37,711 nt of DNA from an uncultured Lachnospiraceae bacterium (GTDB lineage Bacteria; Bacillota; Clostridia; Lachnospirales; Lachnospiraceae), in assembly GCA_964424675.1 (NCBI GenBank), contig CAYRJT010000001.1, forward strand, positions 2,343-40,053, read 5' to 3'. The translations under genes were made by a program, and so were the position numbers. Shown in pieces: positions 4,293 through 25,264 of the stretch (position 1 is the first letter of the stretch; each line of letters begins with the position of its first letter). The notes under the pieces were generated by a model. The model saw nothing but the letters and a program-made list of their open reading frames with translations, made no database searches and was not told the DNA's origin.

Positions 4293-5222
4293 CTACCCGA
4301 TTCGAGTCCCGGTCTTCCCATTGATACCGTCCTTGGCCTTTTCAAGCAAGGTAATGAGTGCAGTACGTCCGGACTTACTGGAGGCAAATTCAACACAGGC
4401 CTCCACCTTCGGGAGCATAGAGCCGGGAGCAAATTCTCCGGCTTTGATGTATTCCTTTGCTTCCTCAACCGTCATATGATCCAGTAATTTCTCATCCGTC
4501 TTGCGAAAATGAATCGCCACCTTCTCAACTGCAGTCAAAATAATCAGCATATCCGCATCCAGATCCTGCGCCATTCTGGCACTGCAGAAATCCTTATCAA
4601 TCACAGCACTGGCACCCTTCAGATGATTTCCCTGTCTGACAACAGGAATACCGCCACCGCCAGCCGCAATCACAACATCCCCGGCATTCACCAACGTCCG
4701 AATCGCATCAATTTCAACAATCTCAATCGGACGCGGAGAAGCAACCACACGCCGGTAACCCCTTCCCGAATCCTCTATCATCATATGACCATACTCCTTC
4801 GCAGCATAATCAGCCTGCTCCTTTGTCATAAAATGCCCCACAGGCTTCGTCGGATGCTCAAAAGCAGGATCATTTTCATCCACTCTGACCTGTGTAATCA
4901 TAGTCGTCACAGGCTTATTCAGCCCACGATTTTTCAACTCCTCACGCAGCGCATTCTGCAGATCATACCCAATATACGCCTGACTCATGGCAACACAAAC
5001 AGAAAGCGGTGTATTCGGCTGAGTCACATCCTCACGAGACAAAGCCGCCATCGCATTATTAATCATACCAACCTGCGGCCCATTCCCATGAGAAATAATC
5101 ACCTCATGCCCCTCCTCAATCAAATCCACAATTGATCTGGAGGTAATCTTAGCCGCCGTCATCTGCTCCGGAAGCGTATTTCCAAGCGCATTCCCCCCAA
5201 GCGCAATCACAATCCTACTCAT
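4293..5222 (-). CDS. arcC: Carbamate kinase (E. coli YqeA/ArcC type)
   Basis: MSRIVIALGGNALG start, HGNGPQVG, 309 aa. GGAGGG RBS. It is the last gene of the ygeY-ygeW operon. Confidence 0.9.
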   Translation of the reverse strand: MSRIVIALGGNALGNTLPEQMTAAKITSRSIVDLIEEGHEVIISHGNGPQVGMINNAMAALSREDVTQPNTPLSVCVAMSQAYIGYDLQNALREELKNRGLNKPVTTMITQVRVDENDPAFEHPTKPVGHFMTKEQADYAAKEYGHMMIEDSGRGYRRVVASPRPIEIVEIDAIRTLVNAGDVVIAAGGGGIPVVRQGNHLKGASAVIDKDFCSARMAQDLDADMLIILTAVEKVAIHFRKTDEKLLDHMTVEEAKEYIKAGEFAPGSMLPKVEACVEFASSKSGRTALITLLEKAKDGINGKTGTRIG

Positions 5223-5339
5223 ACAAAACCCTCCATAAGCACATTCCCTAACACATATCCACTAAAGTGCAATTATAACCCTATTCACACACAGTCCTTC
5301 CATAAGCAAAGCCTTCCCGGTCGTCCCAGAACCACCCCT

Positions 5340-6530
5340 TTATCTCTTCCGAGGCTTAGCTTCATCCTCCAACCTCTTAAGCAGCCCCGCCGGATCCTCA
5401 AACTTAGCCAGGAAAATCATAGCCGCAATCACATAAGGCTTAAAACTAGCCTGCTTATAAAGCGGGGTACGATACCGGTCAAACACAGACCCGTCAACCT
5501 CACCTTCCTCACAGCTGACCCCTGAAATATCAGCCGGTAAACAATGCAGATAAAGCGCCTTACCGTCCTTCGTAGACTTCATTAACTCCTCAGAACAAGT
5601 CCAGTCCTTATGCGTTGCATTCTGAGCAAGCAGTTCCTTCTCCAGCTTGTTAATACCATCAAAATCACCCTTACCATACAGATTCGTACGCTTCTCCATA
5701 GCAGCAAACGGAGCCCAGCTCTTCGGATACACAATATCCGCATCCTGAAAGGCCTCCGCCATATGATTTGTCTTTGTAAAGGAACCACCCGTAGCTGCCG
5801 CATTCTTTCTGGCAACCTCTTCACATTCCGGCATAATCTCATACCCTTCCGGATGAGCCAGTACGACATCCATACCAAAACGCGTCATCAGACCAATGAC
5901 ACCCTGCGGAACAGATAACGGCTTTCCATAAGAAGGAGAATAAGCCCAGGACATGGCGACCTTCTTACCCTTCAGATTCTCCACACCGCCAAATTCATGA
6001 ATGACATGCAGCATATCCGCCATACACTGCGTAGGGTGGTCAATATCACACTGCAGGTTCACAAGCGTCGGAATCTGCTCCAATACACCATCCTGATAAC
6101 CCTCACGAACCGCATTGGATACATTGTGCATATAAGCATTACCCTTACCAATATACATATCATCCCGGATACCAATGACGTCTGCCATAAAGGAAATCAT
6201 ATTGGCTGTCTCACGCACCGTCTCGCCATGTGCAATCTGAGACTTTCCTTCATCCAGATCCTGCACCTCGAGGCCCAGCAGATTACATGCCGATGCAAAT
6301 GAAAAACGCGTTCTTGTAGAATTGTCACGGAACAGGGAAATACCAAGTCCGCTTTCAAAAACCTTGGTGGAAATATTGTTCTTTCTCATATAACGCAGAG
6401 CGTCTGCAACTGTGAACACGGCCTCCAGTTCATCATCCGTCTTCTCCCAGGTCAGAAAAAAATCATTTTGATACATCTCTTTGAAATTCAGTTTGTTCAG
6501 TTTATCGATATACATCTGTAATGTTTCCAT
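5340..6530 (-). CDS. ygeW: YgeW-type (knotted) carbamoyltransferase
   Basis: 396 aa, the same length as E. coli YgeW. It is recognisably collinear with YgeW: FRDNSTRTRFSF, DEGKSQIAHGETVRETANMISF, NLQCDIDHPTQCMAD, WAYSPSYGKPLSVPQG, HCLPADISGVSC. An AGGAG RBS sits in the 12-nt gap after the ygeY stop. Confidence 0.9.
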   Translation of the reverse strand: METLQMYIDKLNKLNFKEMYQNDFFLTWEKTDDELEAVFTVADALRYMRKNNISTKVFESGLGISLFRDNSTRTRFSFASACNLLGLEVQDLDEGKSQIAHGETVRETANMISFMADVIGIRDDMYIGKGNAYMHNVSNAVREGYQDGVLEQIPTLVNLQCDIDHPTQCMADMLHVIHEFGGVENLKGKKVAMSWAYSPSYGKPLSVPQGVIGLMTRFGMDVVLAHPEGYEIMPECEEVARKNAAATGGSFTKTNHMAEAFQDADIVYPKSWAPFAAMEKRTNLYGKGDFDGINKLEKELLAQNATHKDWTCSEELMKSTKDGKALYLHCLPADISGVSCEEGEVDGSVFDRYRTPLYKQASFKPYVIAAMIFLAKFEDPAGLLKRLEDEAKPRKR

Positions 6531-6542
6531 ATGTGTTCTCCT

Positions 6543-7736
6543 TTATTTGCAATACAATGTCGGCATAGCAGCATAAACAGCAGCGCATCTTACGAGGTCT
6601 TCTTTCCAGGTACGTTCATTTGGTGCATGTGCCTGTGCTTCCTTGCCGGGGCCAAAGCCAATACAAGGAATCCCGAAACGTCCCATAATCGAAACACCAT
6701 TGGTAGAGAAGGTCCACTTATCAACGACCGGTTCCCCATACATACCCTGATAGGATTCTACCATAGCCTTGGTAGCCGGATGGTCAGAAGGGATGACCCA
6801 AGTCGGGAAGTAGCAGTCTGTCGGATAAACTAGACCGGTATAGCTTGGACGGTCATATTTGTACATAGATACCTCGGCCTGATATTTCTGAACCGTAGGT
6901 AAATTACGGATTTCCTGCAGAGCAGATTCATATGTCTCGCCGTCAGTCAGTCGTCTGTCAATTGAGATGGCACACATATCAGCAACTGCACAGCGTGAAG
7001 GAGAAGTGAAGAAGATCTCAGACACAGCCAGCGTACCCTTGCCCAGAAATGCATTGTCGAGCAGCTTATCATTTAGTGCACGTACCTCCTGTAAAATGTC
7101 ACCCATCTTATAAATTGCATTGTCGCCACGCTCCGGTGCAGAACCGTGACAGGAAACACCCTGTACCTCCACACGGATTTCCATACGTCCGCGCTGTCCG
7201 CGATAGATATGTCCGTCGGTAGGCTCTGTAATCACTACAAATTCCGGCTTTACCTTGTCTTCATTGATGATGTACTGCCAGCAGAGACCGTCACAATCCT
7301 CCTCTTGAACCGTACCGGTTACTAAAACCGTATATTTGTCAGAGAGAAGACCGAGATCTTTCATAATCTTAGCTCCATAGACGGAGGAAACAAGACCACC
7401 AAGCTGATCAGAGGTACCACGTCCGCCGATTTCAGTCTCTGTCTCATAACCCTCATACGGATCAAACTCCCAGTTGGAGCGGTTGCCGATGCCGACATTG
7501 TCAATGTGCGCATCATAGGCAATCAGCGTAGAGCCGGTTCCCATATATCCAAGTACATTGCCCATCGGATCGATTTCTACTTTATCAAACCCAACCTTTC
7601 TCATTTCTTCAGCAATTCTGTCAATGTGTCCTTTTTCTTCACAGCTTTCCCCCGGAATGCGAACGAGGTCTCGCAAGAACTTTGTCATATCCTGCTCGTA
7701 TTGTTCAGCCGCTGCTTTGATTTTGGTAAAATCCAT
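6543..7736 (-). CDS. ygeY: YgeY-type M20 peptidase/deacylase (selenium-metabolism-linked hydrolase family)
   Basis: Collinear with E. coli YgeY: [92 protein letters not shown] lies 7 nt before the ATG at 7736. The track start at 7787 has no RBS. Confidence 0.9.
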
Positions 7737-7823
7737 ATGTATTCCTCCTCTTTGATTATTGACCGTTTTTACAAGTTTGATTTTCATAACCGATCAATCA
7801 TACCTTATTTGGTTCATTACATT

Positions 7824-8513
7824 TTACTTGTTTATATCAACATAACTATACAAAGTATATTTGGATATATTAAAATACTTCGATACCTTATCGCCGGATT
7901 TGGTAATCAAAAAGGCTCCGGCATCATTTAAGAAATTGATTGCTCTGATTTTATCCTCCTTCGACATCAATGCCACCGGAACACCAATCAGATCTACAGA
8001 CTGCTTAATCAATTCATCCAGCAGTTCATTGACATCCTTCGTGATGCGGCTGGGCGCTTCCTTCTTCTCCTCATCCTCGGGACAGGAAATCAGAGAAGAA
8101 ATCGACCGGTCAATGGCAAGCAGATTCGTAATGTCATAATTGATGGCAAGAATATAACGAACGGCACCGGTCTCATCCTGAATGAAGAGCGTACTGGATT
8201 TGAGAATTCTGCCACTGTCGGTCTGTGTCAGGTATGCCAGCCGGTCAACAGGATGCTCGGTGTGATGGGAAATTGTATCCAGAACAATCGGAGACGGCCC
8301 GCCACCGACTTCCCGGTTACTGATGTGTCCGTTTTCAATATGTACAATGGAATGATCCATATTGGCAAGTGCCAGATCATGAATCACAACCTCACAATTA
8401 TTTCCGAACTGTGCCGCCAGTCCTACGGCTAATTGCTTTAATATTGTCAAGGTAGCAGCTTCATTATCCAAAAAATCATCTCCCTTAATTACGAAATTAT
8501 CATTTTGCGTCAT
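7824..8513 (-). CDS. YheO/DauR-like transcriptional regulator (PAS-like sensor domain plus C-terminal HTH)
   Basis: The C-terminal part DKIRAINFLNDAGAFLITKSGDKVSKYFNISKYTLYSY is the YheO-type HTH. The N-terminal 130 aa resemble the YheO PAS-like domain. It lies 87 nt upstream of ygeY on the same strand. Confidence 0.7.
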   Translation of the reverse strand: MTQNDNFVIKGDDFLDNEAATLTILKQLAVGLAAQFGNNCEVVIHDLALANMDHSIVHIENGHISNREVGGGPSPIVLDTISHHTEHPVDRLAYLTQTDSGRILKSSTLFIQDETGAVRYILAINYDITNLLAIDRSISSLISCPEDEEKKEAPSRITKDVNELLDELIKQSVDLIGVPVALMSKEDKIRAINFLNDAGAFLITKSGDKVSKYFNISKYTLYSYVDINK

Positions 8514-8543
8514 TTATCCGTAAATGAGCAGTTTCTACTTATT

Positions 8544-8571
8544 ATCATAGCATAGTAAAGGAGAATTGCAA
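8544..8571 (-). promoter_or_regulatory. Candidate sigma-A promoter of the YheO-like regulator: TTGCAA, 16-nt spacer, TATGAT
   Basis: On the minus strand the -35 TTGCAA corresponds to 8566-8571 and the -10 TATGAT to 8544-8549. Confidence 0.45.
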
Positions 8572-8620
8572 GACAAATTACAAAAAGATTTAGCACTAAA
8601 AAATATTTTTATTCTATTCA

Positions 8621-8649
8621 TTGCAATTTCATATAGTGGGTGATATGAT
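8621..8649 (+). promoter_or_regulatory. Candidate sigma-A promoter of the 491-aa PLP enzyme gene: TTGCAA, 17-nt spacer, TATGAT
   Basis: The -35 is at 8621-8626 and the -10 at 8644-8649. The -10 lies 45 nt upstream of the ATG at 8695. An AGGAGG RBS is present. Confidence 0.5.
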
Positions 8650-8694
8650 GAAATTGTATAAAATCATGAAGTCGAATATCAGGAGGTATGGAAC

Positions 8695-10170
8695 ATGATC
8701 GATTTAACGAGAAATGAACAGGCACTTGAGAAAAATATAGAAAAGGCAAAGGAAAAGAATATTATCATTCCGACCATTGCTCAGATGAAGAATCCCGATT
8801 TGATACCAGACGAGATCAAAGAGAAGCTGAAAAATGTTGGTCTGTGGGATGTCAATCCGTTGAATCTCTTTAGAATATCATGGAAGAATGAGCAAAAGGA
8901 AAGCGGAGGTCTATTTGGCGGCAGCAATTATATCGTACTTCCGTCAGAACTCACCGGTGTGAAGGCGAAGATCATCTGTTTGATTGGGAAATGGTTCCCG
9001 ACAGGCTGTCATAAGGTTGGTGCTTCCTTTGGATGTCTTGTACCAAGACTGATCACAGGACAATTTGATACGACTCATCATAAAGCAGTCTGGCCATCTA
9101 CTGGCAATTACTGCCGTGGCGGAGCATTCAACTCCAAGCTTTTAGGTGCAGAGTCCATCGCAATCCTGCCAGCTGAAATGAGCAAGGAAAGATTTGAATG
9201 GCTTCAAAGCATTGCAGGAGAGGTCATTGCAACCCCAGGCTGTGAGAGCAACGTAAAGGAAATCTTTGATAAGACCTGGGAGCTGAAGACAACGAGAAAG
9301 GATGTACTGATCTTCAACCAGTTTGAGGAGATGGGCAATTATTTATGGCATTATAATGTGACAGGAAGCGCAATAGCAGATGCCTATGAAGAAATGAAGC
9401 AGCCAGGCGACAGATTCGCAGGAGCAGTCTTCACATCTGGTTCAGCAGGCACAATGGCATCCGGCGATTATTTAAAGGAAAAATACCCAACTGCTAAGCT
9501 TGGTGTTGGTGAAGCACTGCAGTGTCCTACATTATTAAACAACGGATTTGGCGGACACCGAATCGAAGGCATCGGTGACAAGCATGTGCCGTGGATTCAC
9601 AACGTAAAAAATACAGATTTAGTCATTGATATTGATGATGAGGACAGCCAGAAGCTGATTCGATTCTTAAATGAGCCAATCGGCAAAGAATATCTTGTAA
9701 AGGAGCTGGGTGTCAGTCCTGAATTTGTAGAGTATCTTAGCTACTTTGGCATTTCAGGGATTGCCAATATGCTATGTGCAATTAAGATGGCGAAGTACTA
9801 TGAGATGACAGAGCATGATGTAATTGCAACTGTTATGACGGACTCTGTTTCTATGTACGGCTCTAGAATTAAGGAGCTGCAGGAGGAGAATGGTGCCTAT
9901 ACATCTACAATGGCCGCAGTGGACTATGCAAAGCACATTGCATCCATCAAGACTGACAATATGCAGGAGCTGACCTACATCGACCGCAAGAGAGTACATA
10001 ATCTGAAGTACTACACCTGGGTAGAGCAGCAGGGCAGAACCGCTGAAGAGCTGAATGCACTCTGGTATGATGATGAGCACACATGGGGTGCTGTCCGCAG
10101 AGAAGCAGGAGCGATTGATGAACTGATTAATGAATTCAATGAACGTACAGGGCTGCTTAAGGACCTGTAA
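8695..10170 (+). CDS. Fold-type-II (Trp-synthase-beta superfamily) PLP-dependent enzyme of unknown specificity, 491 aa
   Basis: Candidate PLP lysine in FPTGCHKVGASFG. STGNYCRGGA and the Gly-rich loop FTSGSAGTMASG are typical of the PALP fold. There are long N- and C-terminal extensions. It is not collinear with YgeX, cysteine synthase or ThrC as far as I can judge by eye. Confidence 0.7.
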   Translation: MIDLTRNEQALEKNIEKAKEKNIIIPTIAQMKNPDLIPDEIKEKLKNVGLWDVNPLNLFRISWKNEQKESGGLFGGSNYIVLPSELTGVKAKIICLIGKWFPTGCHKVGASFGCLVPRLITGQFDTTHHKAVWPSTGNYCRGGAFNSKLLGAESIAILPAEMSKERFEWLQSIAGEVIATPGCESNVKEIFDKTWELKTTRKDVLIFNQFEEMGNYLWHYNVTGSAIADAYEEMKQPGDRFAGAVFTSGSAGTMASGDYLKEKYPTAKLGVGEALQCPTLLNNGFGGHRIEGIGDKHVPWIHNVKNTDLVIDIDDEDSQKLIRFLNEPIGKEYLVKELGVSPEFVEYLSYFGISGIANMLCAIKMAKYYEMTEHDVIATVMTDSVSMYGSRIKELQEENGAYTSTMAAVDYAKHIASIKTDNMQELTYIDRKRVHNLKYYTWVEQQGRTAEELNALWYDDEHTWGAVRREAGAIDELINEFNERTGLLKDL

Positions 10171-14358: not shown

Positions 14359-15630
14359 ATGAATTTATTATGGAAGGCAGGATATAATATGGGGAATATG
14401 AAAAATGTAATATCAGCAGTCTGCGTAAAGTGTGGAGCTGAATTTGAGGCAGATCCAAATGTGACGACTTGCAAGAGGTGTGGCGGGATTCTGGATATAA
14501 AATATGATTACGAGTGGATTAAGAGTCAGGTGTCAGTGAAGGATATGGCAGACCGGCATGAAAACAGCATGTGGCGCTATCGTGAGTTCCTTCCGGTACA
14601 GGGTGACAGCAAGGTTCCGAAGCTGCGTGTCGGCTGGTCTCCGTTTTATCAGTCAGAACGGCTGGCAGAGAAACTCGGCATCGCAAAGCTGTACATTAAG
14701 GACGATGGCATCAATCCAACAGCAAGTCTGAAGGACCGCGCATCAGCAATGGCAGTTGTAAAAGCCGAAGAAGCCGGAGCCTCCATCATCGCATGCTCCT
14801 CCACAGGCAATGCCGCATCCTCTCTCGCGGGCAATGCCGCAGCAGCAGGCTTCAAGACCTATATCTTTGTACCCGAACGCGCCCCGAAGGGCAAAGTCGC
14901 ACAGCTCATGATGTTCGGAGCCAATGTCATCAGCGTCAAGGGCTCCTATGAAGATACCTTCCGCTTATCAGCAGAAGCAATCGACCGCTGGGGCTGGTAC
15001 AACCGGAATGCCGCAATCAATCCCTATCTGATGGAAGGTAAGAAGACAGTCTCTCTTGAGATTGCAGAACAATTAAACTGGAAAATGACAGACTATGTAG
15101 CAATCTCCGTAGGAGACGGCTGCACAATCGGCGGTGTATGGAAAGGCTTCAAAGACCTGTATGCGGCCGGCTTCATAGATAAACTGCCAAGATTAATCAG
15201 TGTCCAGGCAGAAGGCTGCTGTCCAATCAACCGCGCCATCGCCGAGGGCAAGGGCTGGCATCCGATGGAAGAAAACACCATTGCTGACAGCATCGCCGTC
15301 GGTGTACCCAGAAATCCCGATAAAGCGCTAAATGCCATCCGTGAATCCAACGGTGTTGTCGTAAACGTCTCCGATCAGGAAATCCTAGATGCCATGAAGC
15401 TTCTCGGAACTATCTGCGGCGTCTTTGCAGAACCTGCCGGAGCCACCGGAACCGCCGGAGTCAAGAAAGCCATTGAGCAGTCCCTGATCCCCCACGACGC
15501 AACCATAGTCACCGTCGTCACCGGAAACGGCCTCAAGGACCCCGCAACCGCCATCACCGCCGCCGGTACCCCCATCACCATCCCTCCACAAATGACCAAC
15601 CTGCTATCCGCATTTCCAGAGTTAAAATAA
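14359..15630 (+). CDS. Threonine-synthase-like PLP enzyme with an N-terminal Cys4 zinc ribbon
   Basis: CVKCG...CKRCGG zinc ribbon. PTASLKDRASAMAV carries the PLP lysine, followed by CSSTGNAASSLAG. Alternative starts at 14389 and 14398. Confidence 0.75.
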   Translation: MNLLWKAGYNMGNMKNVISAVCVKCGAEFEADPNVTTCKRCGGILDIKYDYEWIKSQVSVKDMADRHENSMWRYREFLPVQGDSKVPKLRVGWSPFYQSERLAEKLGIAKLYIKDDGINPTASLKDRASAMAVVKAEEAGASIIACSSTGNAASSLAGNAAAAGFKTYIFVPERAPKGKVAQLMMFGANVISVKGSYEDTFRLSAEAIDRWGWYNRNAAINPYLMEGKKTVSLEIAEQLNWKMTDYVAISVGDGCTIGGVWKGFKDLYAAGFIDKLPRLISVQAEGCCPINRAIAEGKGWHPMEENTIADSIAVGVPRNPDKALNAIRESNGVVVNVSDQEILDAMKLLGTICGVFAEPAGATGTAGVKKAIEQSLIPHDATIVTVVTGNGLKDPATAITAAGTPITIPPQMTNLLSAFPELK

Positions 15631-15949: not shown

Positions 15950-16105
15950 GAAGAACAAGGGGTATGGCTTCCAATTCGCAGGTCAAGCCAAAGGAGTCTG
16001 AAAACTCAGTGAAAAACGCAGGAGCCATTCTCCTGCGTTTTTCACATCTCTGGGGTTGAAGAGGACGACGCGTCGGAGAATTGGAAGCCATGCCCCTTGC
16101 TCTTC
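15950..16105. repeat. 156-bp palindromic (MITE-like or structured-RNA) element with 28-nt arms around a central hairpin
   Basis: The arm at 15950-15977 is complementary to 16078-16105 at 26 of 28 positions. The element is concentric with the perfect 16-bp hairpin at 16009-16045. The segments between (31 and 32 nt) are not complementary. Confidence 0.6.
16009..16045. terminator. Candidate bidirectional intrinsic terminator
   Basis: GTGAAAAACGCAGGAG, loop CCATT, then CTCCTGCGTTTTTCAC. A GC-rich core stem is flanked by an A-tract and a T-tract, so either strand reads stem plus TTTTT. Confidence 0.55.
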
Positions 16106-16212: not shown

Positions 16213-17319
16213 TTATTGAATCTCTAAGTTCTTCCAGATATCATCAGGAATCAAAGCGACATAAGTCTTACCTGTATTCAATGTAATCTCTTTTCCATCC
16301 GGATCAAAATACTGTGTTACTGCAAGCTCTTCAGCCTTAGACCATGTAATCGGAAGTGCCTTGCCGTTTGTGATATAGTATCCCTCACGATCATAATCGA
16401 TAGAATGGAACATCATATATCCGTTATCATCAAATACAACATAACGTGCATTCTGCAGAAGAACATTCTTGAATGCTAACTGCTGGTTGTTGTTGCCCGG
16501 ATCAACGTGCTCTGAACCATACTCTGAGTAGTAGTAGAGACCATCCTCTGCGTTGTAATCCAGATACGGCTTGTTGTGCTTATAAGGCAGCTGGATATGT
16601 GATGCATCCTCAGCCTTAGAGTTAGAAGACAAATCTACAGGGCTTGTCTCAGAAGCAAACTGATAATGAGGACCCGGATAGTAATCATTGTATTCCTGTG
16701 TATACTTGGAGTCTGCAAATTTCTTCTCCAGATCTCCTGCTAAAATGTACTCTGTAAATTCTCTTGACTTGCCATTGTCTACACGTGAAAATCCGCCGCT
16801 GAAGTTATTCACATAATCATTTGCAAGATAATCATCAATATAGAACGGGCCGCCGTCATGGCAGATTACTGCATTCCACTCAGGAATCAGCTGCAGGTTT
16901 GTAGGTCTGACACTACGGATAGAACCAAGCTGCTCAATGCTGCCCCAGTCCTTAACGAGAACCATCAGACGTGTAACGCCGTCGTTTGCCATACTGTTTG
17001 TGATTTCATATACGATATCAGCCTTGGATACACCATAGTGCGGAAGAGCTGTCTTCTCATTGTCGACCATGGCTGCAATCGGTCTTTGGTTTTTAATGGT
17101 TTCATCAATCCATTCGTTTGTTAACTCGCTGCGGTACATTCCCTCACGAGATTCCTCCTCTACGGCTACAGGAGCTTCTGTAGGTGTCTGGTCTGTGACA
17201 ACCTCGATAACCGGTTCAGCAACTGCCTCTGCCGGAGCCTCCTCCTTGCCTTTTCCACATCCTGTCATCACCAAACCACAAGCCAGTGCTGTCAGGATGA
17301 TTAAGTTCCACTTCTTCAT
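16213..17319 (-). CDS. DUF3048 (YerB-like) lipoprotein
   Basis: MKKWNLIILTALACGLVMTGCGK is a lipoprotein signal peptide with a lipobox. PIAAMVDNEKTALPHYGVSKADIVYE is typical of DUF3048. GAGAGGAAG RBS. The track start at 17511 adds 64 implausible residues. Confidence 0.8.
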   Translation of the reverse strand: MKKWNLIILTALACGLVMTGCGKGKEEAPAEAVAEPVIEVVTDQTPTEAPVAVEEESREGMYRSELTNEWIDETIKNQRPIAAMVDNEKTALPHYGVSKADIVYEITNSMANDGVTRLMVLVKDWGSIEQLGSIRSVRPTNLQLIPEWNAVICHDGGPFYIDDYLANDYVNNFSGGFSRVDNGKSREFTEYILAGDLEKKFADSKYTQEYNDYYPGPHYQFASETSPVDLSSNSKAEDASHIQLPYKHNKPYLDYNAEDGLYYYSEYGSEHVDPGNNNQQLAFKNVLLQNARYVVFDDNGYMMFHSIDYDREGYYITNGKALPITWSKAEELAVTQYFDPDGKEITLNTGKTYVALIPDDIWKNLEIQ

Positions 17320-17464
17320 AAGTATACTTCCTCTCTTTCTGTTATAAACGATGCAGCTAATGTGATAGCTTTCGTTGACGATTATAACACAAAAGAATCT
17401 GTTCGTCATTACCAAATTTAACATATCTGTAACATTTAATTTTTTTTTTAGAAATACAAATAAG

Positions 17465-17493
17465 TTGTCAGAAATCTCACAAAATGGTATGAT
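17465..17493 (+). promoter_or_regulatory. Candidate sigma-A promoter of the ssnA operon: TTGTCA, 17-nt spacer, TATGAT with TG at the extended -10 position
   Basis: The -35 is at 17465-17470 and the -10 at 17488-17493, preceded by TGG. The leader to the ATG at 17555 is about 60 nt, too short for a riboswitch. Confidence 0.55.
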
Positions 17494-17554
17494 AATAAAT
17501 AGAAAGTTCATGCGAAAACACGGGAATATTTAATGGAATAAGGGAGGTTTTGCC

Positions 17555-18886
17555 ATGTTACTAATTGGAAACGGAAGAATGATTACACGGGATGCTAAGG
17601 CTCCATTTATAGAAAACGGTGCAGTGGTAACAGAGGGACCGAAAATCATAGAAACAGGAGACTACACAGTACTAAAGAAAAAATATCCGGATGCGGAACT
17701 GATCGATGCCAAAGGTGGCGTGATCATGCCTGCATTGATCAATACACATGAGCATATTTATTCGACGATGGCAAGAGGGCTTGCAATCAAAGGGTACAGT
17801 CCGGACGGCTTTCTGGAAATCCTGGATGGCATGTGGTGGAACATAGACAGACACCTGACGCTGGAGCAGACCGGTCTGAGTGCAGAGTCTACCTATATAG
17901 ACTGCATCAAGAACGGTGTCACAACAGTTTTTGATCATCATGCCAGCTATGGTTCCATTCGGGATTCCTTATTCAAAATAGAAGAAGCAGCAAAAAAGAC
18001 AGGAATCAGAAGCTGTCTCTGTTTTGAAATCTCGGATCGTGACGGGGAAGTCAAGATGCGGGATGCCATTTTAGAAAATGAGGCATTTTGCAGACATGCA
18101 CTGTCTGATGATACAGATATGATAGCCGGCATGATGGGACTGCATGCATCCTTTACCCTTTCGGATGACACATTGGCACTGTGCGCGGAGCATAAGCCGG
18201 ATGGGGTTGGATATCATATTCATGTAGCAGAGGGAATCGAGGATCTGTATGATTCTCTGAAGAAGTATGGAAAACGGATCATCGACAGACTGATGGATCA
18301 CGGCATATTAGGAGAGAAGACGCTTACGGCACACTGTATCTATATCAATGAACATGAGATGGATGTCCTGAAGGAAACCGGAACGATGGTTGTACATAAT
18401 CCAGAGTCTAATATGGGAAATGCATGCGGCTGTCCTCCGACGATGAGGATCATACAAAAGGGAATCCTGACCGGGCTTGGAACAGACGGCTATACACATG
18501 ACATGCTGGAATCCTACAAGGTGGCCAATATCCTGCATAAGCATCATCTGTGCGATCCGGGAGCCGCCTGGGCAGAGATCCCGCAGATGCTGTTTGAGGG
18601 CAACGCGCAGATTGCAGGACGTTATTTTAAAAGACCGCTGGGCGTGCTGAAGGAGGGTGCGGCAGCGGATGTAATCATTACAGATTATATCCCGATCACT
18701 CCAATGAATGCGGACAATCTCAATGGACATATCTTATTTGGAATGAGTGGACGCAGTGTTGTTACAACGGTAGCGAATGGACAGGTGCTGATGAAGGACA
18801 GATGTCTGACTCAGATTGATGAGGAAGAGACACTGGCACATGTCAGAGAAGCAGCAAAGAAATTAGCAAATTCCATCAATGTATAA
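17555..18886 (+). CDS. ssnA: SsnA-type amidohydrolase (chlorohydrolase/aminohydrolase superfamily)
   Basis: 443 aa, collinear with E. coli SsnA: MPALINTHEHIYS, WWNIDRHL, FDHHAS, HIHVAEG, LTAHCIY, VHNPESNM, LGTDG. GGGAGG RBS. Confidence 0.9.
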   Translation: MLLIGNGRMITRDAKAPFIENGAVVTEGPKIIETGDYTVLKKKYPDAELIDAKGGVIMPALINTHEHIYSTMARGLAIKGYSPDGFLEILDGMWWNIDRHLTLEQTGLSAESTYIDCIKNGVTTVFDHHASYGSIRDSLFKIEEAAKKTGIRSCLCFEISDRDGEVKMRDAILENEAFCRHALSDDTDMIAGMMGLHASFTLSDDTLALCAEHKPDGVGYHIHVAEGIEDLYDSLKKYGKRIIDRLMDHGILGEKTLTAHCIYINEHEMDVLKETGTMVVHNPESNMGNACGCPPTMRIIQKGILTGLGTDGYTHDMLESYKVANILHKHHLCDPGAAWAEIPQMLFEGNAQIAGRYFKRPLGVLKEGAAADVIITDYIPITPMNADNLNGHILFGMSGRSVVTTVANGQVLMKDRCLTQIDEEETLAHVREAAKKLANSINV

Positions 18887-18899
18887 AGGAGGCGGCTAT

Positions 18900-21800
18900 A
18901 TGGGCGACAGAATGACACCGATCCCATTTTCAAAACTCGTGGATCAGATACTGACAGAAAAGCAACAGGGAAGCATATTCGGAATTCGCGATTTATATGT
19001 GGCGAAGCAGAATCATACCCTCTCTTTATTTGGAGAGAAGATGGAAACACCATTTGGCCCGGCAGCGGGACCGCATACACAGCTTGCTCAGAATATTATA
19101 GCAGCTTATGCGGCCGGAGCCCGTTTCTTTGAACTGAAGACGGTCCAGAAGCTGGACGGTGAAGATCTGCCAGTCAGCAAGCCATGTATCAAGGCAGATG
19201 ATGAGGGTTATAACGTAGAATGGTCTACTGAGTTAACAGTACAGCAGGCATTTGATGAATATGTCAAAGCATGGTTCGCTATCAAGCTTATGGCCAAAGA
19301 ATTCGGAATCGGTGCTATGGATGGCTTTATTTTTAATATGAGTGTCGGTTATGATCTGGATGGTATCAAGCTGAAAAAGATTGATGATTTTATGGAGGGT
19401 CTTAAGGACGCTTCTGACACACCGATATTCCGGGAATGCCGTGCATTTACACTGGAGCATCTGGAACTGTTCACGGATATTACCGAAGAGGATGTGCAGT
19501 CCATTTCTCCTCATATCTGTACGTCAGCAACGCTGTCTACCCTGCATGGCTGTCCGCCACAGGAGATCGAACGTATTGCTACCTATTTAATGAAGGAAAA
19601 GCATCTGAATACATTTATCAAATGCAACCCAACTCTGCTCGGCTATGAATTTGCCAGACGTACACTGGATGATATGGGATATGATTATGTATCGTTTGGT
19701 GAGTTTCATTTCCAGGATGATCTGCAGTATGCCGATGCAGTACCGATGCTGAGTCGCCTGACGGAGCTTGCAGAGCAGGAGAAGCTGGAGTTTGGAGTTA
19801 AGCTCACCAATACATTTCCGGTGGATATCAAGGCAGAAGAATTACCGGGACAGGAAATGTATATGTCAGGACGTGCCCTGTATCCACTTTCAATCGCATT
19901 GGCAGCTAAATTATCAGAGGAATTCAAAGGAAAGCTGCGGATTTCGTATTCCGGAGGCGCAGATTATCATAATATCAAGAAAATATTCGAGACGGGTATC
20001 TGGCCGATCACGATGGCGACGACTCTGTTAAAGCCCGGCGGATACCAAAGGATGACACAGATCGGTGATCTGCTCGGACAAGGACATGAAGGCTATCCGG
20101 AAGATCACGGTATCGACGTAGAGAAGGTCAAGGCACTGGCAAAGAACGCAAGACGGGATAGAAATCATAGAAAACCTGTCAAGCTGCCGGTTTCACGCAA
20201 GATGGAGCGCAAGGTTCCACTGATTGACTGCTTTGTGGCACCCTGCAGAGAGGGTTGTCCGATTCATCAGGATATCACTGCCTATATGGAACTGGTATCA
20301 CGCGGCGAATATGCCAAGGCGCTGTATGTGATTATGGAAAAAAATCCGCTTCCTTATATAACGGGCACAATCTGTGCGCACAGATGTATGAGTAAATGTA
20401 CCAGAAACTTCTATGAGGAGCCGGTACATATCCGGAAAATGAAGCTTCGTGCGGCACGTGGCGGCTACGATGCAGTACTGGCAGGACATTCTGAGGGAAC
20501 GAAGGACAAAGGCAGAGTGGCCATCATCGGCGCAGGACCGGCAGGTATCTCGGCAGCTTATTTTCTGGCTCGTGCAGGCATGGATGTAACGATTTTTGAA
20601 AAGAAAGAGGTTCCAGGTGGAGTGGTCAGACATGTGATACCGGAGTTTAGGATCTCATCAGAGGATGTGATGAAGGATATCGCCTTTGTGGAAAAGCTGG
20701 GAGTGCAGATTGAGGTAAATTCGCCGGTTCATACGATTGATGAATTGAAAGAAAAGGGCTTTAGAAAGATCATCGTGGCGATCGGTGCAGGCAAGGAGGG
20801 CATCCTGTCATTGAAGTCAGGCTCTTCAATCAGTGCAGTTACATTTCTCGAGGATTTCAAGAATACAGAAGGCAGTATGGATATTGGCAGTCAGGTCGTA
20901 GTTGTCGGAGGCGGAAACACAGCGATGGATACGGCACGTGCTGCGATCCGTGTAGATGGTGTGGAGAAGGTGACGCTGATCTATCGCAGGACAAAGAGAT
21001 ATATGCCGGCGGATGAGGAAGAATTGCTGCTCGCGATAGAGGAAGGCGTGGAGTTCATGGAACTGCTGACCCCTGTCAGCTTTGAGAACGGAACACTGAC
21101 CTGTCACCGGATCGAGCTCGGAGAACCGGATGCAACCGGTCGCCGGAGTCCGGTCGAGACAGAAGAGGTGATAGAGATACCGGCAGATGTCGTGATTGGT
21201 GCAGTGGGAGAACACATTGACGATGACTTCTATAAATCAAACAATATCATGATGACGTATGGAGGAAAACCAGCGGTAGATGCCGAAACCCTGCAGAGTT
21301 CGGTTCCGGGTGTTTATATCATTGGAGATGGACGTGGTGGTCCGGCTACGGTTGTTGAGGCAATTGCAGATGCAACCAGAGTATCAGAGGCAATTTTATC
21401 AGAACGGATGTCACGGGATGTCAATGAGGAGAAGGATTTACGGGATATTTATGAGAAACACGGTGTCATTTGTGATTCCATAGATGGAGCTGTGAATACG
21501 ACGACAACGGAGCAAAGGGCAAAAGCCGAGTATGAGAGATGCTTGTCCTGCTTTGCTGTTTGCGAGGCCTGTGTGGAGGCATGCCCGAATCGAGCCAACA
21601 TATCTGTTCGTATTCCGGGTAAAGAAAAATCGCAGATTCTTCATATCGACCAGAGATGTAATGAATGCGGCAACTGCAGAACATTTTGCCCGTATGACAG
21701 TGCGCCGTATCTCGATAAGCTGACGTTATTTGCGACGGAAGCAGATTTTGATCACAGTAAGAATCAGGGATTTGTACTGCTGGATCCCGATAAACAGATA

Positions 21801-21923
21801 TTGAAACTGCGGCTGGGCGAACGTCATTATACGATAGAAGGCTTTGAAGCAGAAAGTCATGTGGATCCGCAGATTATGAATCTCATAGAGACCGTGTATC
21901 ACAAATATAGATATTTATTCTAA
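18900..21923 (+). CDS. ygfK: YgfK-type large Fe-S flavoprotein oxidoreductase (annotated in E. coli as putative selenate reductase subunit)
   Basis: The N-terminal region is a DPD/DHOD-like barrel. Two dinucleotide sites are present, VAIIGAGPAGISAAYFLARAG and VVVVGGGNTAMDTARAA. Cys clusters are CREGCPIHQD, CLSCFAVCEACVEACP and CNECGNCRTFCP. AAGGAGG lies before the ATG at 18900. Confidence 0.9.
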   Translation: MGDRMTPIPFSKLVDQILTEKQQGSIFGIRDLYVAKQNHTLSLFGEKMETPFGPAAGPHTQLAQNIIAAYAAGARFFELKTVQKLDGEDLPVSKPCIKADDEGYNVEWSTELTVQQAFDEYVKAWFAIKLMAKEFGIGAMDGFIFNMSVGYDLDGIKLKKIDDFMEGLKDASDTPIFRECRAFTLEHLELFTDITEEDVQSISPHICTSATLSTLHGCPPQEIERIATYLMKEKHLNTFIKCNPTLLGYEFARRTLDDMGYDYVSFGEFHFQDDLQYADAVPMLSRLTELAEQEKLEFGVKLTNTFPVDIKAEELPGQEMYMSGRALYPLSIALAAKLSEEFKGKLRISYSGGADYHNIKKIFETGIWPITMATTLLKPGGYQRMTQIGDLLGQGHEGYPEDHGIDVEKVKALAKNARRDRNHRKPVKLPVSRKMERKVPLIDCFVAPCREGCPIHQDITAYMELVSRGEYAKALYVIMEKNPLPYITGTICAHRCMSKCTRNFYEEPVHIRKMKLRAARGGYDAVLAGHSEGTKDKGRVAIIGAGPAGISAAYFLARAGMDVTIFEKKEVPGGVVRHVIPEFRISSEDVMKDIAFVEKLGVQIEVNSPVHTIDELKEKGFRKIIVAIGAGKEGILSLKSGSSISAVTFLEDFKNTEGSMDIGSQVVVVGGGNTAMDTARAAIRVDGVEKVTLIYRRTKRYMPADEEELLLAIEEGVEFMELLTPVSFENGTLTCHRIELGEPDATGRRSPVETEEVIEIPADVVIGAVGEHIDDDFYKSNNIMMTYGGKPAVDAETLQSSVPGVYIIGDGRGGPATVVEAIADATRVSEAILSERMSRDVNEEKDLRDIYEKHGVICDSIDGAVNTTTTEQRAKAEYERCLSCFAVCEACVEACPNRANISVRIPGKEKSQILHIDQRCNECGNCRTFCPYDSAPYLDKLTLFATEADFDHSKNQGFVLLDPDKQILKLRLGERHYTIEGFEAESHVDPQIMNLIETVYHKYRYLF

Positions 21924-21936
21924 ATGAGGGATGAAA

Positions 21937-23313
21937 ATGGCAGACAGATATTTGATTGCTGGAGGACAAATTATCTCCGGCGGTGGCAGCAGGACGGCCG
22001 ATATTCTGATCGATAACGGCAGGATCGAAAAAATAGGTGAGGATCTGGCAGATATGACTGCAAGACGTATTGATGCGTCCGGCAGGCTGATCTTCCCCGG
22101 CTTTATTGATGCACATACACACTTTGATCTGGAAGTGTCCGATACAGTGACGGCGGATGACTTTGAATCAGGGACAAAGGCGGCCATAGCAGGAGGAACC
22201 ACCTGTATCATTGATTTTGCGACACAGTACAAGAAGGAAACATTATCAGAGGCTCTGGCAACATGGCACAAAAAAGCCGATGGTGTCTGCTCCTCAGATT
22301 ATGCATTTCATATGGCGATATCTGATTGGAATGAGAATACCGCAGAGGAAATCAAGGAGATGTTTGCAGGCGGAGTGACATCCTTCAAATTGTATATGAC
22401 TTATGACATCAGAGTCAGCGATGGCGTGATTTATGATATTCTGAAGAAAATGAAAGCAGTGGGCGGTATTGTAGGTGTGCACTGTGAGAACAATGATCTT
22501 ATCAACAGACTGGCAGGAGAGCAAAAATCTGCCGGAGATTACTCACCGGCGGCACATCCGAAGTCACGTCCGGCCTGTGCCGAGGCTGAGGCGATACATC
22601 GTCTGCTGACAATTGCCAGAGTGGTTGATGTACCGGTCATGATTGTTCATCTTTCTTCGGAGGAGGGCTATGAAGAGGTTTGCCGCGCGAGAGAAAAAGG
22701 ACAAAAGGTGTACACGGAGACCTGTCCGCAGTATCTGATTCTGGATGAGAGCAGATACCAGCTGGAGGATTTTGAAGGTGCGAAATATGTATGCTCGCCG
22801 CCTCTCAGGAGCAGACAGGATAAGGAATGTCTCTGGCAGGCTGTCAGGGACGGGCAGATCGATACGATATCAACAGATCATTGTTCCTTTACCATGGCAC
22901 AGAAAAGGATGGGGATCAAAGATTTTACAAAGATTCCAAACGGCATGCCCGGAGTGGGCAACAGACCGCAGCTGATGTATACCTATGGAGTGCTGGAGGA
23001 CAGAATGACAGTGTCCCAGATGTGCAGACTACTGTCAGAGAATCCGGCAAAGCTTTATGGCATGTATCCGCGAAAGGGCTGTATTGCAGAGGGCTCAGAT
23101 GCGGATATTGTCATCTGGAATCCGGCTTACAGAAGAACCATCACAGCCGAGGGACAACTGTATCAGACTGATTATAACCCCTATGAGGGGATCAAGGTCA
23201 GAGGCATGGCAGAGAGGGTGTTTTTAAGAGGCATGCCGGTAGCAGAAAAGGGCGAGATAACAAAACCGAATACAGACTGCTATATCAAGCGGGAGGAAGG
23301 AATCAGGATATGA
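21937..23313 (+). CDS. hyuA: D-hydantoinase / dihydropyrimidinase family cyclic amidohydrolase (HyuA-like)
   Basis: PGFIDAHTHFDL, FKLYMTY (carbamylated-Lys region), VHCEN, VHLSS, DHCSF. About 458 aa like E. coli HyuA. Alternative ATG at 21931. Confidence 0.85.
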   Translation: MADRYLIAGGQIISGGGSRTADILIDNGRIEKIGEDLADMTARRIDASGRLIFPGFIDAHTHFDLEVSDTVTADDFESGTKAAIAGGTTCIIDFATQYKKETLSEALATWHKKADGVCSSDYAFHMAISDWNENTAEEIKEMFAGGVTSFKLYMTYDIRVSDGVIYDILKKMKAVGGIVGVHCENNDLINRLAGEQKSAGDYSPAAHPKSRPACAEAEAIHRLLTIARVVDVPVMIVHLSSEEGYEEVCRAREKGQKVYTETCPQYLILDESRYQLEDFEGAKYVCSPPLRSRQDKECLWQAVRDGQIDTISTDHCSFTMAQKRMGIKDFTKIPNGMPGVGNRPQLMYTYGVLEDRMTVSQMCRLLSENPAKLYGMYPRKGCIAEGSDADIVIWNPAYRRTITAEGQLYQTDYNPYEGIKVRGMAERVFLRGMPVAEKGEITKPNTDCYIKREEGIRI

Positions 23314-24365
23314 AACTGATCAAAACAGAAGATGCTGTCGGGCATGTACTGTGTCATGATATCACGCAGATCATCAAAGGTGTGACCAAGGATGCTGTAT
23401 TCCGTAAAGGGCATGTGGTTCAGAAGGAGGATATTCCTGTGTTGCTGTCTGTGGGCAAGGAACATCTGTATGTATGGGAAAAGAGAGAGGACATGCTTCA
23501 TGAGGACGAAGCAGCTCTGATTTTATATGAGATCTGTGTGGGCAATCATATGCATGCCGGTGAGATCAAGGAAGGTAAGATCGAGCTGATTGCGGACTGT
23601 GATGGCCTGCTAAAGGTGGATAGTGAACGTCTGCGTGCAATCAACATGGTCGGTGAGATGATGATTGCGACCAGACACGGCAATACAACCGTGCACAAAG
23701 GAGATAAGCTGGCAGGAACCCGGGTAATTCCACTGATGATTGAAAAGAAGCGTATGGAACATGCTCGTGGTATTGCGGAGGAATATAAGAAAAACAGCGG
23801 TGGACTTCCGATGCTGGATGTGAAACCTTTTTTGCACAAGAAGGTGGGAATCGTGACGACCGGTTCCGAAGTTTATCATGGACGTATTGAAGATACATTT
23901 ACGCCGGTCATTTTAGACAAACTGGCACAGTTTGATACGGAGATTATTGGTCAGAAAATTTGTGATGATGATTCGGCAGGGATTACAGCAGCCATTCAGG
24001 AATGGATACAGCAGGGCGCTGATCTGGTCATCTGTACCGGCGGTATGAGTGTAGATCCGGATGACAGGACTCCGCTTGCAATCAAAAATGCATGCAGCAA
24101 GGATCAGAAAGGACATGTTGTAAGCTATGGTGCGCCGGTACTGCCGGGGGCGATGTTTCTGCTTGCATATAACGATGCCGGGATTCCGGTGATCGGACTT
24201 CCGGGCTGTGTGATGTATGCGAAAAGAACGATTTTTGATCTGATTCTGCCGAGACTGATGGCAGACGAGAAACTGACTGCTGCTGATATCAATTGTCTGG
24301 GAGAGGGAGGCCTGTGTCTGTCCTGCGAGGTCTGTACCTTCCCGAACTGTGGTTTCGGCAAATAG
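23310..24365 (+). CDS. Molybdopterin-binding protein (MoeA-N-like segment plus MoaB/MogA-type MoCF domain) with a Cys-rich tail
   Basis: The KTEDAVGHVLCHDI opening is MoeA-like. VGIVTTGSEV...ADLVICTGGMSVDPDDRTP is the MoCF-binding fold. The tail is CLGEGGLCLSCEVCTFPNC. The start overlaps the hyuA stop (ATGA at 23310-23313). Confidence 0.7.
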   Translation: MKLIKTEDAVGHVLCHDITQIIKGVTKDAVFRKGHVVQKEDIPVLLSVGKEHLYVWEKREDMLHEDEAALILYEICVGNHMHAGEIKEGKIELIADCDGLLKVDSERLRAINMVGEMMIATRHGNTTVHKGDKLAGTRVIPLMIEKKRMEHARGIAEEYKKNSGGLPMLDVKPFLHKKVGIVTTGSEVYHGRIEDTFTPVILDKLAQFDTEIIGQKICDDDSAGITAAIQEWIQQGADLVICTGGMSVDPDDRTPLAIKNACSKDQKGHVVSYGAPVLPGAMFLLAYNDAGIPVIGLPGCVMYAKRTIFDLILPRLMADEKLTAADINCLGEGGLCLSCEVCTFPNCGFGK

Positions 24366-24415
24366 CCGTGGAGTATGTCAGAGTTCATAAATATGGAGCA
24401 AATGGAGCAAAATGA

Positions 24416-25264
24416 ATGAGTATCGCACAAAGTAAGTTTAAGGATATTATGATACAGCAGGATGAACTGATCGTATGCGGTGGAGGACATGTTTCCATTC
24501 CGATTATCAAAATAGGAAAGATGCTCGATTTCAGTGTAACCGTTTTGGAGGACAGACCACTTTATGCTGATCACGTAAGAGCCGCAGGTGCCGACCGCGT
24601 GATCTGTGATACGTTTAGGGACGCACTTTCACAGATTGATGGCGGATCAAATGTATATTTTGTCGTTGTGACACGAGGGCACAGGTATGATATGGAATGT
24701 CTGCGCTCTATTTTTGAAAAGAAGTATGCTTATGCAGGCATGATGGGGTCGAGAGTACGATCCGGAGAGGTCAGAAAAGCATTGGCAGCAGAGGGCATAT
24801 CGGAGGTTGAGATTGCAAAGTTGCATAGTCCGATCGGACTGCCGATCGGGGGAGAGACCCCTGAGGAAATAGCGGTTTCGGTGATGGCTGAGATTGTACA
24901 GGTCAGAGACCAGATTCGCAAGGAGAAGAAAGCTGATGGCTATACACATGAGATCCTGCAGGCACTTCTTGCGGATGACGACAGAAGCAGATGTCTGGTG
25001 ACGATCATTTCCAGAAAAGGCTCTGCACCCAGAAGCGTCGGAACCAAAATGGTGGTTTTCGAAGACGGAGTCTGTACAGGGACGATTGGCGGAGGCTGTG
25101 TAGAGGCACAGGTGATGCAGGAAGCGCTGCATATGATGCGAGGAGCAGCGGAAGAAAGCAGGACGCTTAAAATCAACATGCTGCCGGAGCAGGCTGAGGA
25201 GGAAGGGATGGTCTGCGGAGGGATTGTAGAGATTTCACTTGATGTGATTGATCTGAAAGTATAA
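24416..25264 (+). CDS. XdhC/CoxI-family molybdenum-hydroxylase maturation protein with apparently reversed domain order
   Basis: Residues 17-165 match the XdhC Rossmann-like C-domain (LIVCGGGHVSIP, VTRGHRYD, GMMGSRVR, HSPIGLPIGGETPEEIAVSVMAEIV). Residues about 185-280 match the XdhC_CoxI N-domain (LVTIISRKGSAPRSVGTKMVV, GTIGGGCVEAQV, MVCGGIVEI). Confidence 0.7.
   Translation: MSIAQSKFKDIMIQQDELIVCGGGHVSIPIIKIGKMLDFSVTVLEDRPLYADHVRAAGADRVICDTFRDALSQIDGGSNVYFVVVTRGHRYDMECLRSIFEKKYAYAGMMGSRVRSGEVRKALAAEGISEVEIAKLHSPIGLPIGGETPEEIAVSVMAEIVQVRDQIRKEKKADGYTHEILQALLADDDRSRCLVTIISRKGSAPRSVGTKMVVFEDGVCTGTIGGGCVEAQVMQEALHMMRGAAEESRTLKINMLPEQAEEEGMVCGGIVEISLDVIDLKV

Follow-up and report, generated by a model that had tools for sequence, protein, structure and literature searches.

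The window analysed here, a stretch of 37,711 nucleotides on contig CAYRJT010000001.1 of the metagenome-assembled genome (MAG) of an uncultured Lachnospiraceae bacterium, contains a gene cluster of the reductive urate (2,8-dioxopurine) pathway, which was described in 2025 (bioRxiv 10.1101/2025.04.24.650524; PMC12507026). It possesses the same ygeW, ygeY, carbamate kinase, ssnA, ygfK, hyuA and molybdenum-cofactor genes as the published cluster, but ygeX is missing and two genes for pyridoxal 5'-phosphate (PLP) enzymes of fold type II are present instead. YgeX converts 2,3-diaminopropionate to pyruvate and ammonia, the terminal step of the pathway (bioRxiv 10.1101/2025.04.24.650524; PMC12507026; commentary PMC12990295). 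One of the two PLP enzymes is a 491-amino-acid protein resembling cystathionine beta-synthase (CBS) and O-acetylserine sulfhydrylase (OASS), and the other is a zinc-ribbon paralogue of threonine synthase (ThrC). Together they form one conserved two-enzyme module, which selection has maintained within reductive purine-degradation clusters and whose distribution is largely complementary to that of YgeX. The pair probably replaces YgeX, the 2,3-diaminopropionate ammonia-lyase, in the reductive urate cluster of this genome.

In Escherichia coli, ygeX is located between ygeY and ygeW. The initial annotation of the window had noted that these two genes are only 12 nucleotides apart, and this was borne out: the gap (6531-6542, AGGAGAACACAT) holds a ribosome-binding site alone. 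A profile search of the contigs of the MAG (2.65 Mb in 409 contigs, 74.6% complete) found no match reaching the cut-off of the DpaL/YgeX model TIGR03528, so that no ygeX was found elsewhere in the assembled genome either; the top TIGR03528 match, of 66 bits against a cut-off of 532, is the gene of the threonine ammonia-lyase IlvA on another contig (C263). The closest relative in a collection of one genome per species (G235), with a 491-amino-acid protein 92% identical and a ThrC paralogue 86% identical to those of the window, likewise lacks ygeX. DpaL (TIGR03528, NF006058) was absent from the NCBIfam matches of the 491-amino-acid protein at E <= 0.001, and from the 25 best NCBIfam families of the ThrC paralogue.

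The distribution of the pair was compared with that of ygeX in a sample of 200 Clostridia genomes (the class sample), 16 of which (8%) have YgeY above cut-off. Nine of these 16 possess ygeX and lack the 491-amino-acid family; six, consisting of this MAG and five genomes that are 89-97% complete, possess the pair and lack ygeX; one has ygeX together with a 491-amino-acid homologue that is only 35% identical and located elsewhere; and none has neither. A further 79 genomes with the 491-amino-acid family include 53 with YgeY above cut-off and 63 with an SsnA-type gene, and ygeX is absent from 65 of the 79. One carrier of the pair, the isolate Anaerotignum sp. MSJ-24, possesses YgeY and SsnA, and a search for ygeX in it found none. 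The expectation that this PLP family would mark genomes with ygeY that lack ygeX was therefore largely upheld (ygeX in 0/6 YgeY-bearing genomes with the pair, and in 9/9 without the 491-amino-acid family), but the exclusion is not absolute, as both are present in 14 of the 79. The negative association between the pair and ygeX is clear and strong despite kinship among the genomes. Within the 491-amino-acid family, ygeX occurs in 4 of the 12 genomes that lack the ThrC paralogue versus 10 of the 67 that have it. In one genome without the ThrC paralogue, the gene order is ssnA/ygfK, the 491-amino-acid gene, ygeX, YheO, ygeY, ygeW (locus L053), an arrangement resembling a natural exchange in which YgeX has taken the place of the ThrC paralogue and the 491-amino-acid gene is kept. 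Compared with YgeX/DpaL (EC 4.3.1.15) of E. coli and Clostridium sporogenes, the pair also consists of fold-type-II PLP enzymes, occupies the same cluster position beside ygeY and ygeW, and has a complementary distribution among YgeY-bearing genomes; it differs in having no sequence-family relationship to YgeX, in comprising two genes for one, and in that the two systems can coexist.

The 491-amino-acid enzyme is not the orphan that it had been taken for. It has more than 8000 scored homologues and matches 340 representative clusters (at 50% identity) at E <= 1e-30; 591 stretches were confirmed to encode a relative, so that relatives are present in at least 591 species genomes. Members of the family in Clostridia, Chloroflexota, Synergistota, Spirochaetota, Atribacterota and other groups still share more than 60% identity, a sign of strong constraint. 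It also has a conserved partner gene. In a relative with a 491-amino-acid protein 78% identical to that of the window, the next gene encodes a PALP protein of 414 amino acids that is 72% identical to the ThrC paralogue of the window. In 44 of 80 species loci the two genes are no more than 10 kb apart, mostly adjacent and in either order, and the ThrC paralogue is present somewhere in 67 of the 79 genomes carrying the 491-amino-acid family; in the class sample, full-length orthologues of the zinc-ribbon ThrC paralogue occur in exactly the seven genomes with a 491-amino-acid orthologue. Two operons (L066 and L101) combine the 491-amino-acid gene with ygeW, ygeY, ygfK, ssnA and hyuA without the partner, which is located elsewhere in both genomes. 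The initial annotation had offered the 491-amino-acid and ThrC-like enzymes as alternative substitutes for YgeX; co-occurrence largely favours replacement, but not the choice between them, as the two normally constitute an adjacent conserved pair. A complex prediction for the two proteins scored 0.00, which has no bearing on binding either way.

The association with purine genes extends beyond Clostridia. Near the 491-amino-acid gene, at least one of ygeW/ornithine carbamoyltransferase (OTC)-like, ygeY, arcC, ssnA, ygfK and hyuA was found in 46 of the 80 species loci. All-against-all clustering of neighbours in 86 loci recovered carbamoyltransferase (32 loci), carbamate kinase (24), the molybdenum-cofactor subunit of Xdh (22), YgeY (21), hydantoinase (20), SsnA (18), YgfK (12) and a YheO-like regulator (12); other recurring neighbours are the FAD and 2Fe-2S subunits of Xdh, adenine deaminase, a UacX-type reductase, and Bmp/ABC transporters of purine type. 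The pair lies inside reductive urate clusters in Clostridia, Chloroflexota, Synergistota and others. Three operons (L028, L026 and L080) have it between ssnA/xdh and ygeY, where ygeX would be; in the first, the order is ssnA, uacX, xdh, adenine deaminase, ThrC paralogue, 491-amino-acid gene, ygeY, carbamoyltransferase, arcC. Beyond Clostridia the carbamoyltransferase is an unassigned enzyme, OTC-like or aspartate carbamoyltransferase (ATCase)-like rather than YgeW, and SsnA, YgeY and hydantoinase are genuine. As to whether the pair also replaces YgeY, YgeY was found in four of the Chloroflexota genomes, a set of ten only.

Several loci have unusual arrangements. Two different carbamoyltransferase genes are located beside carbamate kinase in L087 (3241-5219) and also in L077, L078 and L088, from Chloroflexota and other non-Clostridia, all of them without YgeY; of the two in L087, the ATCase-like one exceeds the asp_carb_tr cut-off, and its companion resembles OTC. 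Such organisms may phosphorolyse both ureido groups. A single open reading frame encoding 839 amino acids in a Chloroflexia MAG (G247, L117:244-2763) spans matches to both YgeY and YgeX, an apparent fusion that fits consecutive action of the two enzymes. In close relatives (L031:14529-18805 and L005:7690-9709), the pair is beside serC-like/serA-like genes and/or dapF with an aminotransferase, which may be biosynthetic bystanders or may hint at the fate of the C3 unit.

The features of the window that belong to the cluster or adjoin it are as follows.

4293..5222, minus strand: carbamate kinase (arcC/yqeA type), the end gene of the minus-strand operon (TIGR00746, 379 bits, cut-off 358)
5340..6530, minus strand: knotted carbamoyltransferase YgeW (TIGR03316, 797 bits, cut-off 500)
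6543..7787, minus strand: M20 hydrolase YgeY, upstream of ygeW (TIGR03526, 698 bits, cut-off 321.5)
7824..8513, minus strand: YheO-like regulator with PAS_6 and HTH_22 domains (PF08348, 117 bits; PF13309, 65 bits), opening the ygeY-ygeW-arcC operon
8544..8649, one per strand: divergent promoter-like pair, TTGCAA-N16/17-(TG)TATGAT
8695..10170, plus strand: 491-amino-acid CBS/OASS-like PLP enzyme of fold type II, uncharacterised family P0001
10317..14289, plus strand: block of TrkH/TrkA, a short KdpD-like kinase and KdpE, outside the module
14398..15630, plus strand: zinc-ribbon ThrC paralogue, P0272 (NF006050, 313.7 bits; TIGR00260, 234 bits), with an alternative upstream start at 14359
16213-17511, minus strand: DUF3048 protein of 432 amino acids, between the ThrC paralogue and ssnA
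17555-18886, plus strand: ssnA (NF005540, 664 bits)
18879-21923, plus strand: ygfK (TIGR03315, 1416 bits)
21931-23313, plus strand: hyuA, hydantoinase (D-hydantoinase; TIGR02033, 566 bits)
23310..25264, plus strand: molybdenum-cofactor domain protein and XdhC-type maturation factor

The minus-strand genes from 4293 to 8513, encoding the YheO-like regulator, YgeY, YgeW and carbamate kinase, are one operon, and ssnA, ygfK and hyuA on the plus strand represent upstream steps of the reductive urate pathway. Thus the window contains ssnA, ygfK, hyuA, ygeW, ygeY and carbamate kinase of a 2,8-dioxopurine cluster, but not the molybdenum hydroxylase. Two genes for Xdh-type molybdopterin-binding subunits are located on other contigs of the MAG (C61 and C240; L138 and L139), so the pathway's initial step is probably encoded outside the window or split from it by the assembly. 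Between the two PLP genes lies a 4-kb spacer of potassium-uptake and two-component genes, in which the KdpD-like kinase, of 375 amino acids (DUF4118, HisKA and HATPase domains), is followed by KdpE; this block is absent from the corresponding place in relatives and is read as an insertion between the two genes. The DUF3048 gene and the ThrC paralogue are transcribed towards each other; a strong terminator-like hairpin lies at 16009-16045. Neither the window nor L005 yielded a riboswitch or leader near the genes in an Rfam scan, whose sole match was a T-box before valS in L005.

It is scarcely probable that this neighbourhood is a coincidence, with the 491-amino-acid gene unrelated to purines and ygeX hidden in the unassembled quarter of the MAG. 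The fragmentation and incompleteness of the assembly would permit it, the 491-amino-acid gene appears monocistronic here with unrelated potassium genes downstream, and several relatives have no purine genes nearby; against this, several phyla show the synteny with purine genes, YgeY and SsnA are found in 67-80% of genomes of the family compared with 8% for YgeY in the class sample, and pair-bearing genomes that are about 89-97% complete lack ygeX as well.

The ThrC paralogue resembles threonine synthase closely enough to pass its hidden Markov models (TIGR00260, 234 bits, cut-off 167; NF006050, 313.7 bits, cut-off 303). Its catalytic domains share about 40% identity with those of short-form ThrC of the Thermus thermophilus, Aquifex aeolicus and Bacillus subtilis structures (E 7e-71 to 2ZSJ), and it differs from them by an additional N-terminal CxxC...CxxC ribbon. 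When 44 paralogues were aligned with seven canonical ThrC proteins from the same genome sets and with ThrC sequences from the PDB, changes throughout the paralogue family became apparent in motifs that all of the canonical and PDB sequences retain. GSFKDRG is replaced by ASLKDRA, STGNT by STGNA, VN-SxNPxRxEGQKT by NRNAAINPY[LMT]xEGKKT with loss of the arginine, and PVGNAGN by SVGDG[CN] with asparagine changed to aspartate; at invariant ThrC residues these amount to G to A (GSFKDRG), T to A (STGNT), R to L, M or T (NPxR) and N to D (GNAGN). Furthermore, in the class sample the paralogue occurs together with the 491-amino-acid gene, and it is found in purine clusters, unlike ThrC; genomes that possess it also keep a canonical ThrC, of which this MAG has fragments at contig ends. 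Because conserved active-site residues are altered family-wide and a canonical ThrC coexists, the paralogue is, judging by these motifs, not a threonine synthase. T88, S155, R160 and N188 of T. thermophilus ThrC are presumably ligands of the substrate phosphate; if this is right, the paralogue has lost phospho-substrate binding and gained an acidic residue, and would suit an amino-bearing substrate.

These observations bear on the alternative that lyase activity resides in the 491-amino-acid enzyme alone, the ThrC-like gene being an ordinary threonine synthase linked to it by chance. The ThrC-like protein does pass the NCBIfam cut-offs for threonine synthase, and no ThrC-like gene is present in the L066 and L101 operons; however, both of those genomes carry the paralogue elsewhere, the paralogue departs from canonical ThrC at several invariant motifs and coexists with canonical ThrC genes, and in the class sample it is confined to genomes with the 491-amino-acid family. 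This alternative is accordingly very unlikely.

The 491-amino-acid protein is a fold-type-II PLP enzyme by its fold, its Schiff-base lysine and a PALP (PF00291) score of 34.2 bits, just below the gathering score of 35, as had been recognised in the initial annotation together with its N- and C-terminal extensions and its divergence from the YheO-type regulator. It falls far short of every NCBIfam cut-off, including those for cysteine synthase (TIGR01139 and TIGR01136, 78 and 74 bits against about 350; cysK 351). The profile of its core (about residues 75-390) matches cysteine synthases in the PDB (E 5e-34), and an AlphaFold2 model built from a 32-sequence alignment (mean predicted local distance difference test score, pLDDT, 94.9) has cysteine synthase, beta-cyanoalanine synthase, CBS and SbnA as its best Foldseek matches (E about 1e-17, 20-25% identity), with target TM-scores of the core of about 0.79-0.87. 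The core is thus collinear with cysteine synthase and CBS (profile E 5e-34, TM about 0.85), contrary to the earlier impression that the protein is collinear with none of YgeX, cysteine synthase and threonine synthase. The Schiff-base lysine K107, in PTGCHKVG, is invariant in the 32 sequences, and the family conserves a carboxylate loop STGNY, a phosphate loop GSAGT and a CBS-like TDS motif. The protein therefore shares with OASS/CysK, CBS, beta-cyanoalanine synthase and SbnA the core fold, the Schiff-base lysine, the S-T-G-N loop, the glycine-rich phosphate loop and T-D-S, but differs from this branch in the context of the lysine (H-K-V-G instead of S-V-K-D-R), in a GIGDKH loop (GIGAGF or GIGYDF in the OASS/CBS branch), in the extensions of about 75 N-terminal and about 100 helical C-terminal residues, in a helical insertion of ~20 residues near 331-350, and in a context of purine catabolism rather than sulfur metabolism. 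Two other ideas were dropped: OrtB, a subunit of 2-amino-4-oxopentanoate thiolase, is similar in length, but no NCBIfam match supports it and no OrtA-like gene was seen; and a contact of an aspartate with the PLP ring nitrogen gives no ground for claiming anything unusual, as the alignment shows a CBS-like T-D-S motif.

The similarity of the core to OASS, CBS, beta-cyanoalanine synthase and SbnA favours a different exit from the pathway, by which the pair would divert the C3 unit through beta-replacement to serine, cysteine or O-phosphoserine, and onward by SerC and SerA to 3-phosphoglycerate or to biosynthesis, without forming pyruvate. The genes after the pair in L031 encode a SerC-like aminotransferase and a SerA-like 2-hydroxyacid dehydrogenase, which would suit this exit, as would the coexistence of the pair with a complete YgeX cluster in some genomes. 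On the other hand, SerA-like neighbours occur in just 3 of the 86 loci, the SerC-like and SerA-like genes of L031 are themselves followed by dapF and an aminotransferase and may be plain biosynthetic neighbours, the ThrC paralogue has lost residues conserved around the phospho-substrate, which argues against phospho-amino-acid chemistry for that protein, and functional replacement accounts better for the negative association with ygeX. An exit of this kind is unlikely.

Regulation of the 491-amino-acid gene appears to be tied to that of the ygeY operon. The spacer between the regulator gene and the 491-amino-acid gene is 181 nucleotides long and contains the only two matches in the window to TTGCAA-N16/17-TATGAT, on opposite strands (8544-8571, minus; 8621-8649, plus). 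As had been pointed out, both divergent promoter-like sites have identical hexamers, and each has a TG-extended -10 element; 0.02 matches would be expected by chance in the window for this pattern, which was chosen after the sites had been seen. Related loci do not preserve the twin-promoter pattern in its exact form. In 12 loci the 491-amino-acid gene has a YheO-like gene as its neighbour, oriented divergently or placed immediately upstream, and from this arrangement the YheO-type regulator probably controls both divergent transcription units.

If the pair replaces YgeX, it would turn the last C3 intermediate of the pathway into pyruvate and ammonia by PLP-dependent alpha,beta-elimination via aminoacrylate, the intermediate being either 2,3-diaminopropionate, probably in its D form, or albizziin, its 3-ureido precursor. 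Of the two enzymes, the ThrC paralogue may be the likelier direct equivalent of YgeX, because in L053 YgeX is found beside the 491-amino-acid gene without the paralogue, and because ygeX is more frequent in family genomes that lack the paralogue. The 491-amino-acid enzyme would then add a step that YgeX does not provide, such as beta-elimination or beta-replacement on a beta-N-substituted alanine, or action on the other enantiomer. The pathway intermediates have been suggested to have D configuration, and YgeX handles both isomers (bioRxiv 10.1101/2025.04.24.650524; PMC12507026), so a two-enzyme solution could split the work. The division of labour might be between two enantiomers, between a racemase and a lyase, or between albizziin and diaminopropionate.

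Several points weigh against replacement of YgeX by the pair. With only 74.6% of the genome in the MAG, ygeX could sit in the missing part. The 14 genomes with both the 491-amino-acid family and ygeX include several with a full canonical ygeX-ygeY-ygeW-arcC cluster and the pair elsewhere, some relatives have the pair without purine genes within 10 kb, and most genomes are MAGs; related genomes are not independent, so that the figures, which are counts and not statistics, overstate the association. The fold of the 491-amino-acid core is closer to beta-replacing enzymes than to lyases, and the residues lost from ThrC are only presumed to be phosphate ligands. There is also the question of why two enzymes should be needed for a reaction that YgeX performs alone. 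Coexistence with a full YgeX cluster suggests that the pair may do something that YgeX does not. It is possible, if rather doubtful, that the pair performs chemistry beyond that of YgeX, for example direct removal of the beta-ureido group from (D-)albizziin, or beta-replacement to serine or phosphoserine and then 3-phosphoglycerate; this would explain the coexistence, and would add a new enzyme activity to two unnamed fold-type-II families and a new branch to anaerobic purine catabolism.

Both PLP enzymes belong to uncharacterised families; a search of the available literature found no paper linking these two families to purine catabolism. Both founding papers end the pathway with YgeX, but about a third of the YgeY-bearing genomes in the Clostridia sample lack it and have the pair instead. 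The published neighbourhood survey counted YgeX via Pfam PF00291 (PMC12507026), a domain common to all fold-type-II PLP enzymes, and presumably could not distinguish the pair from YgeX. Counts of YgeX, or of PF00291 in its stead, would misjudge which bacteria can complete the pathway, and databases label the proteins of the pair as threonine synthase and as cysteine synthase or generic PLP protein. Work towards urate-lowering probiotics is drawing on the reductive urate pathway of gut bacteria, and the last step of that pathway in pair-bearing organisms is a directly testable question of enzymology, including stereochemistry and products, through which two large protein families would gain a function.

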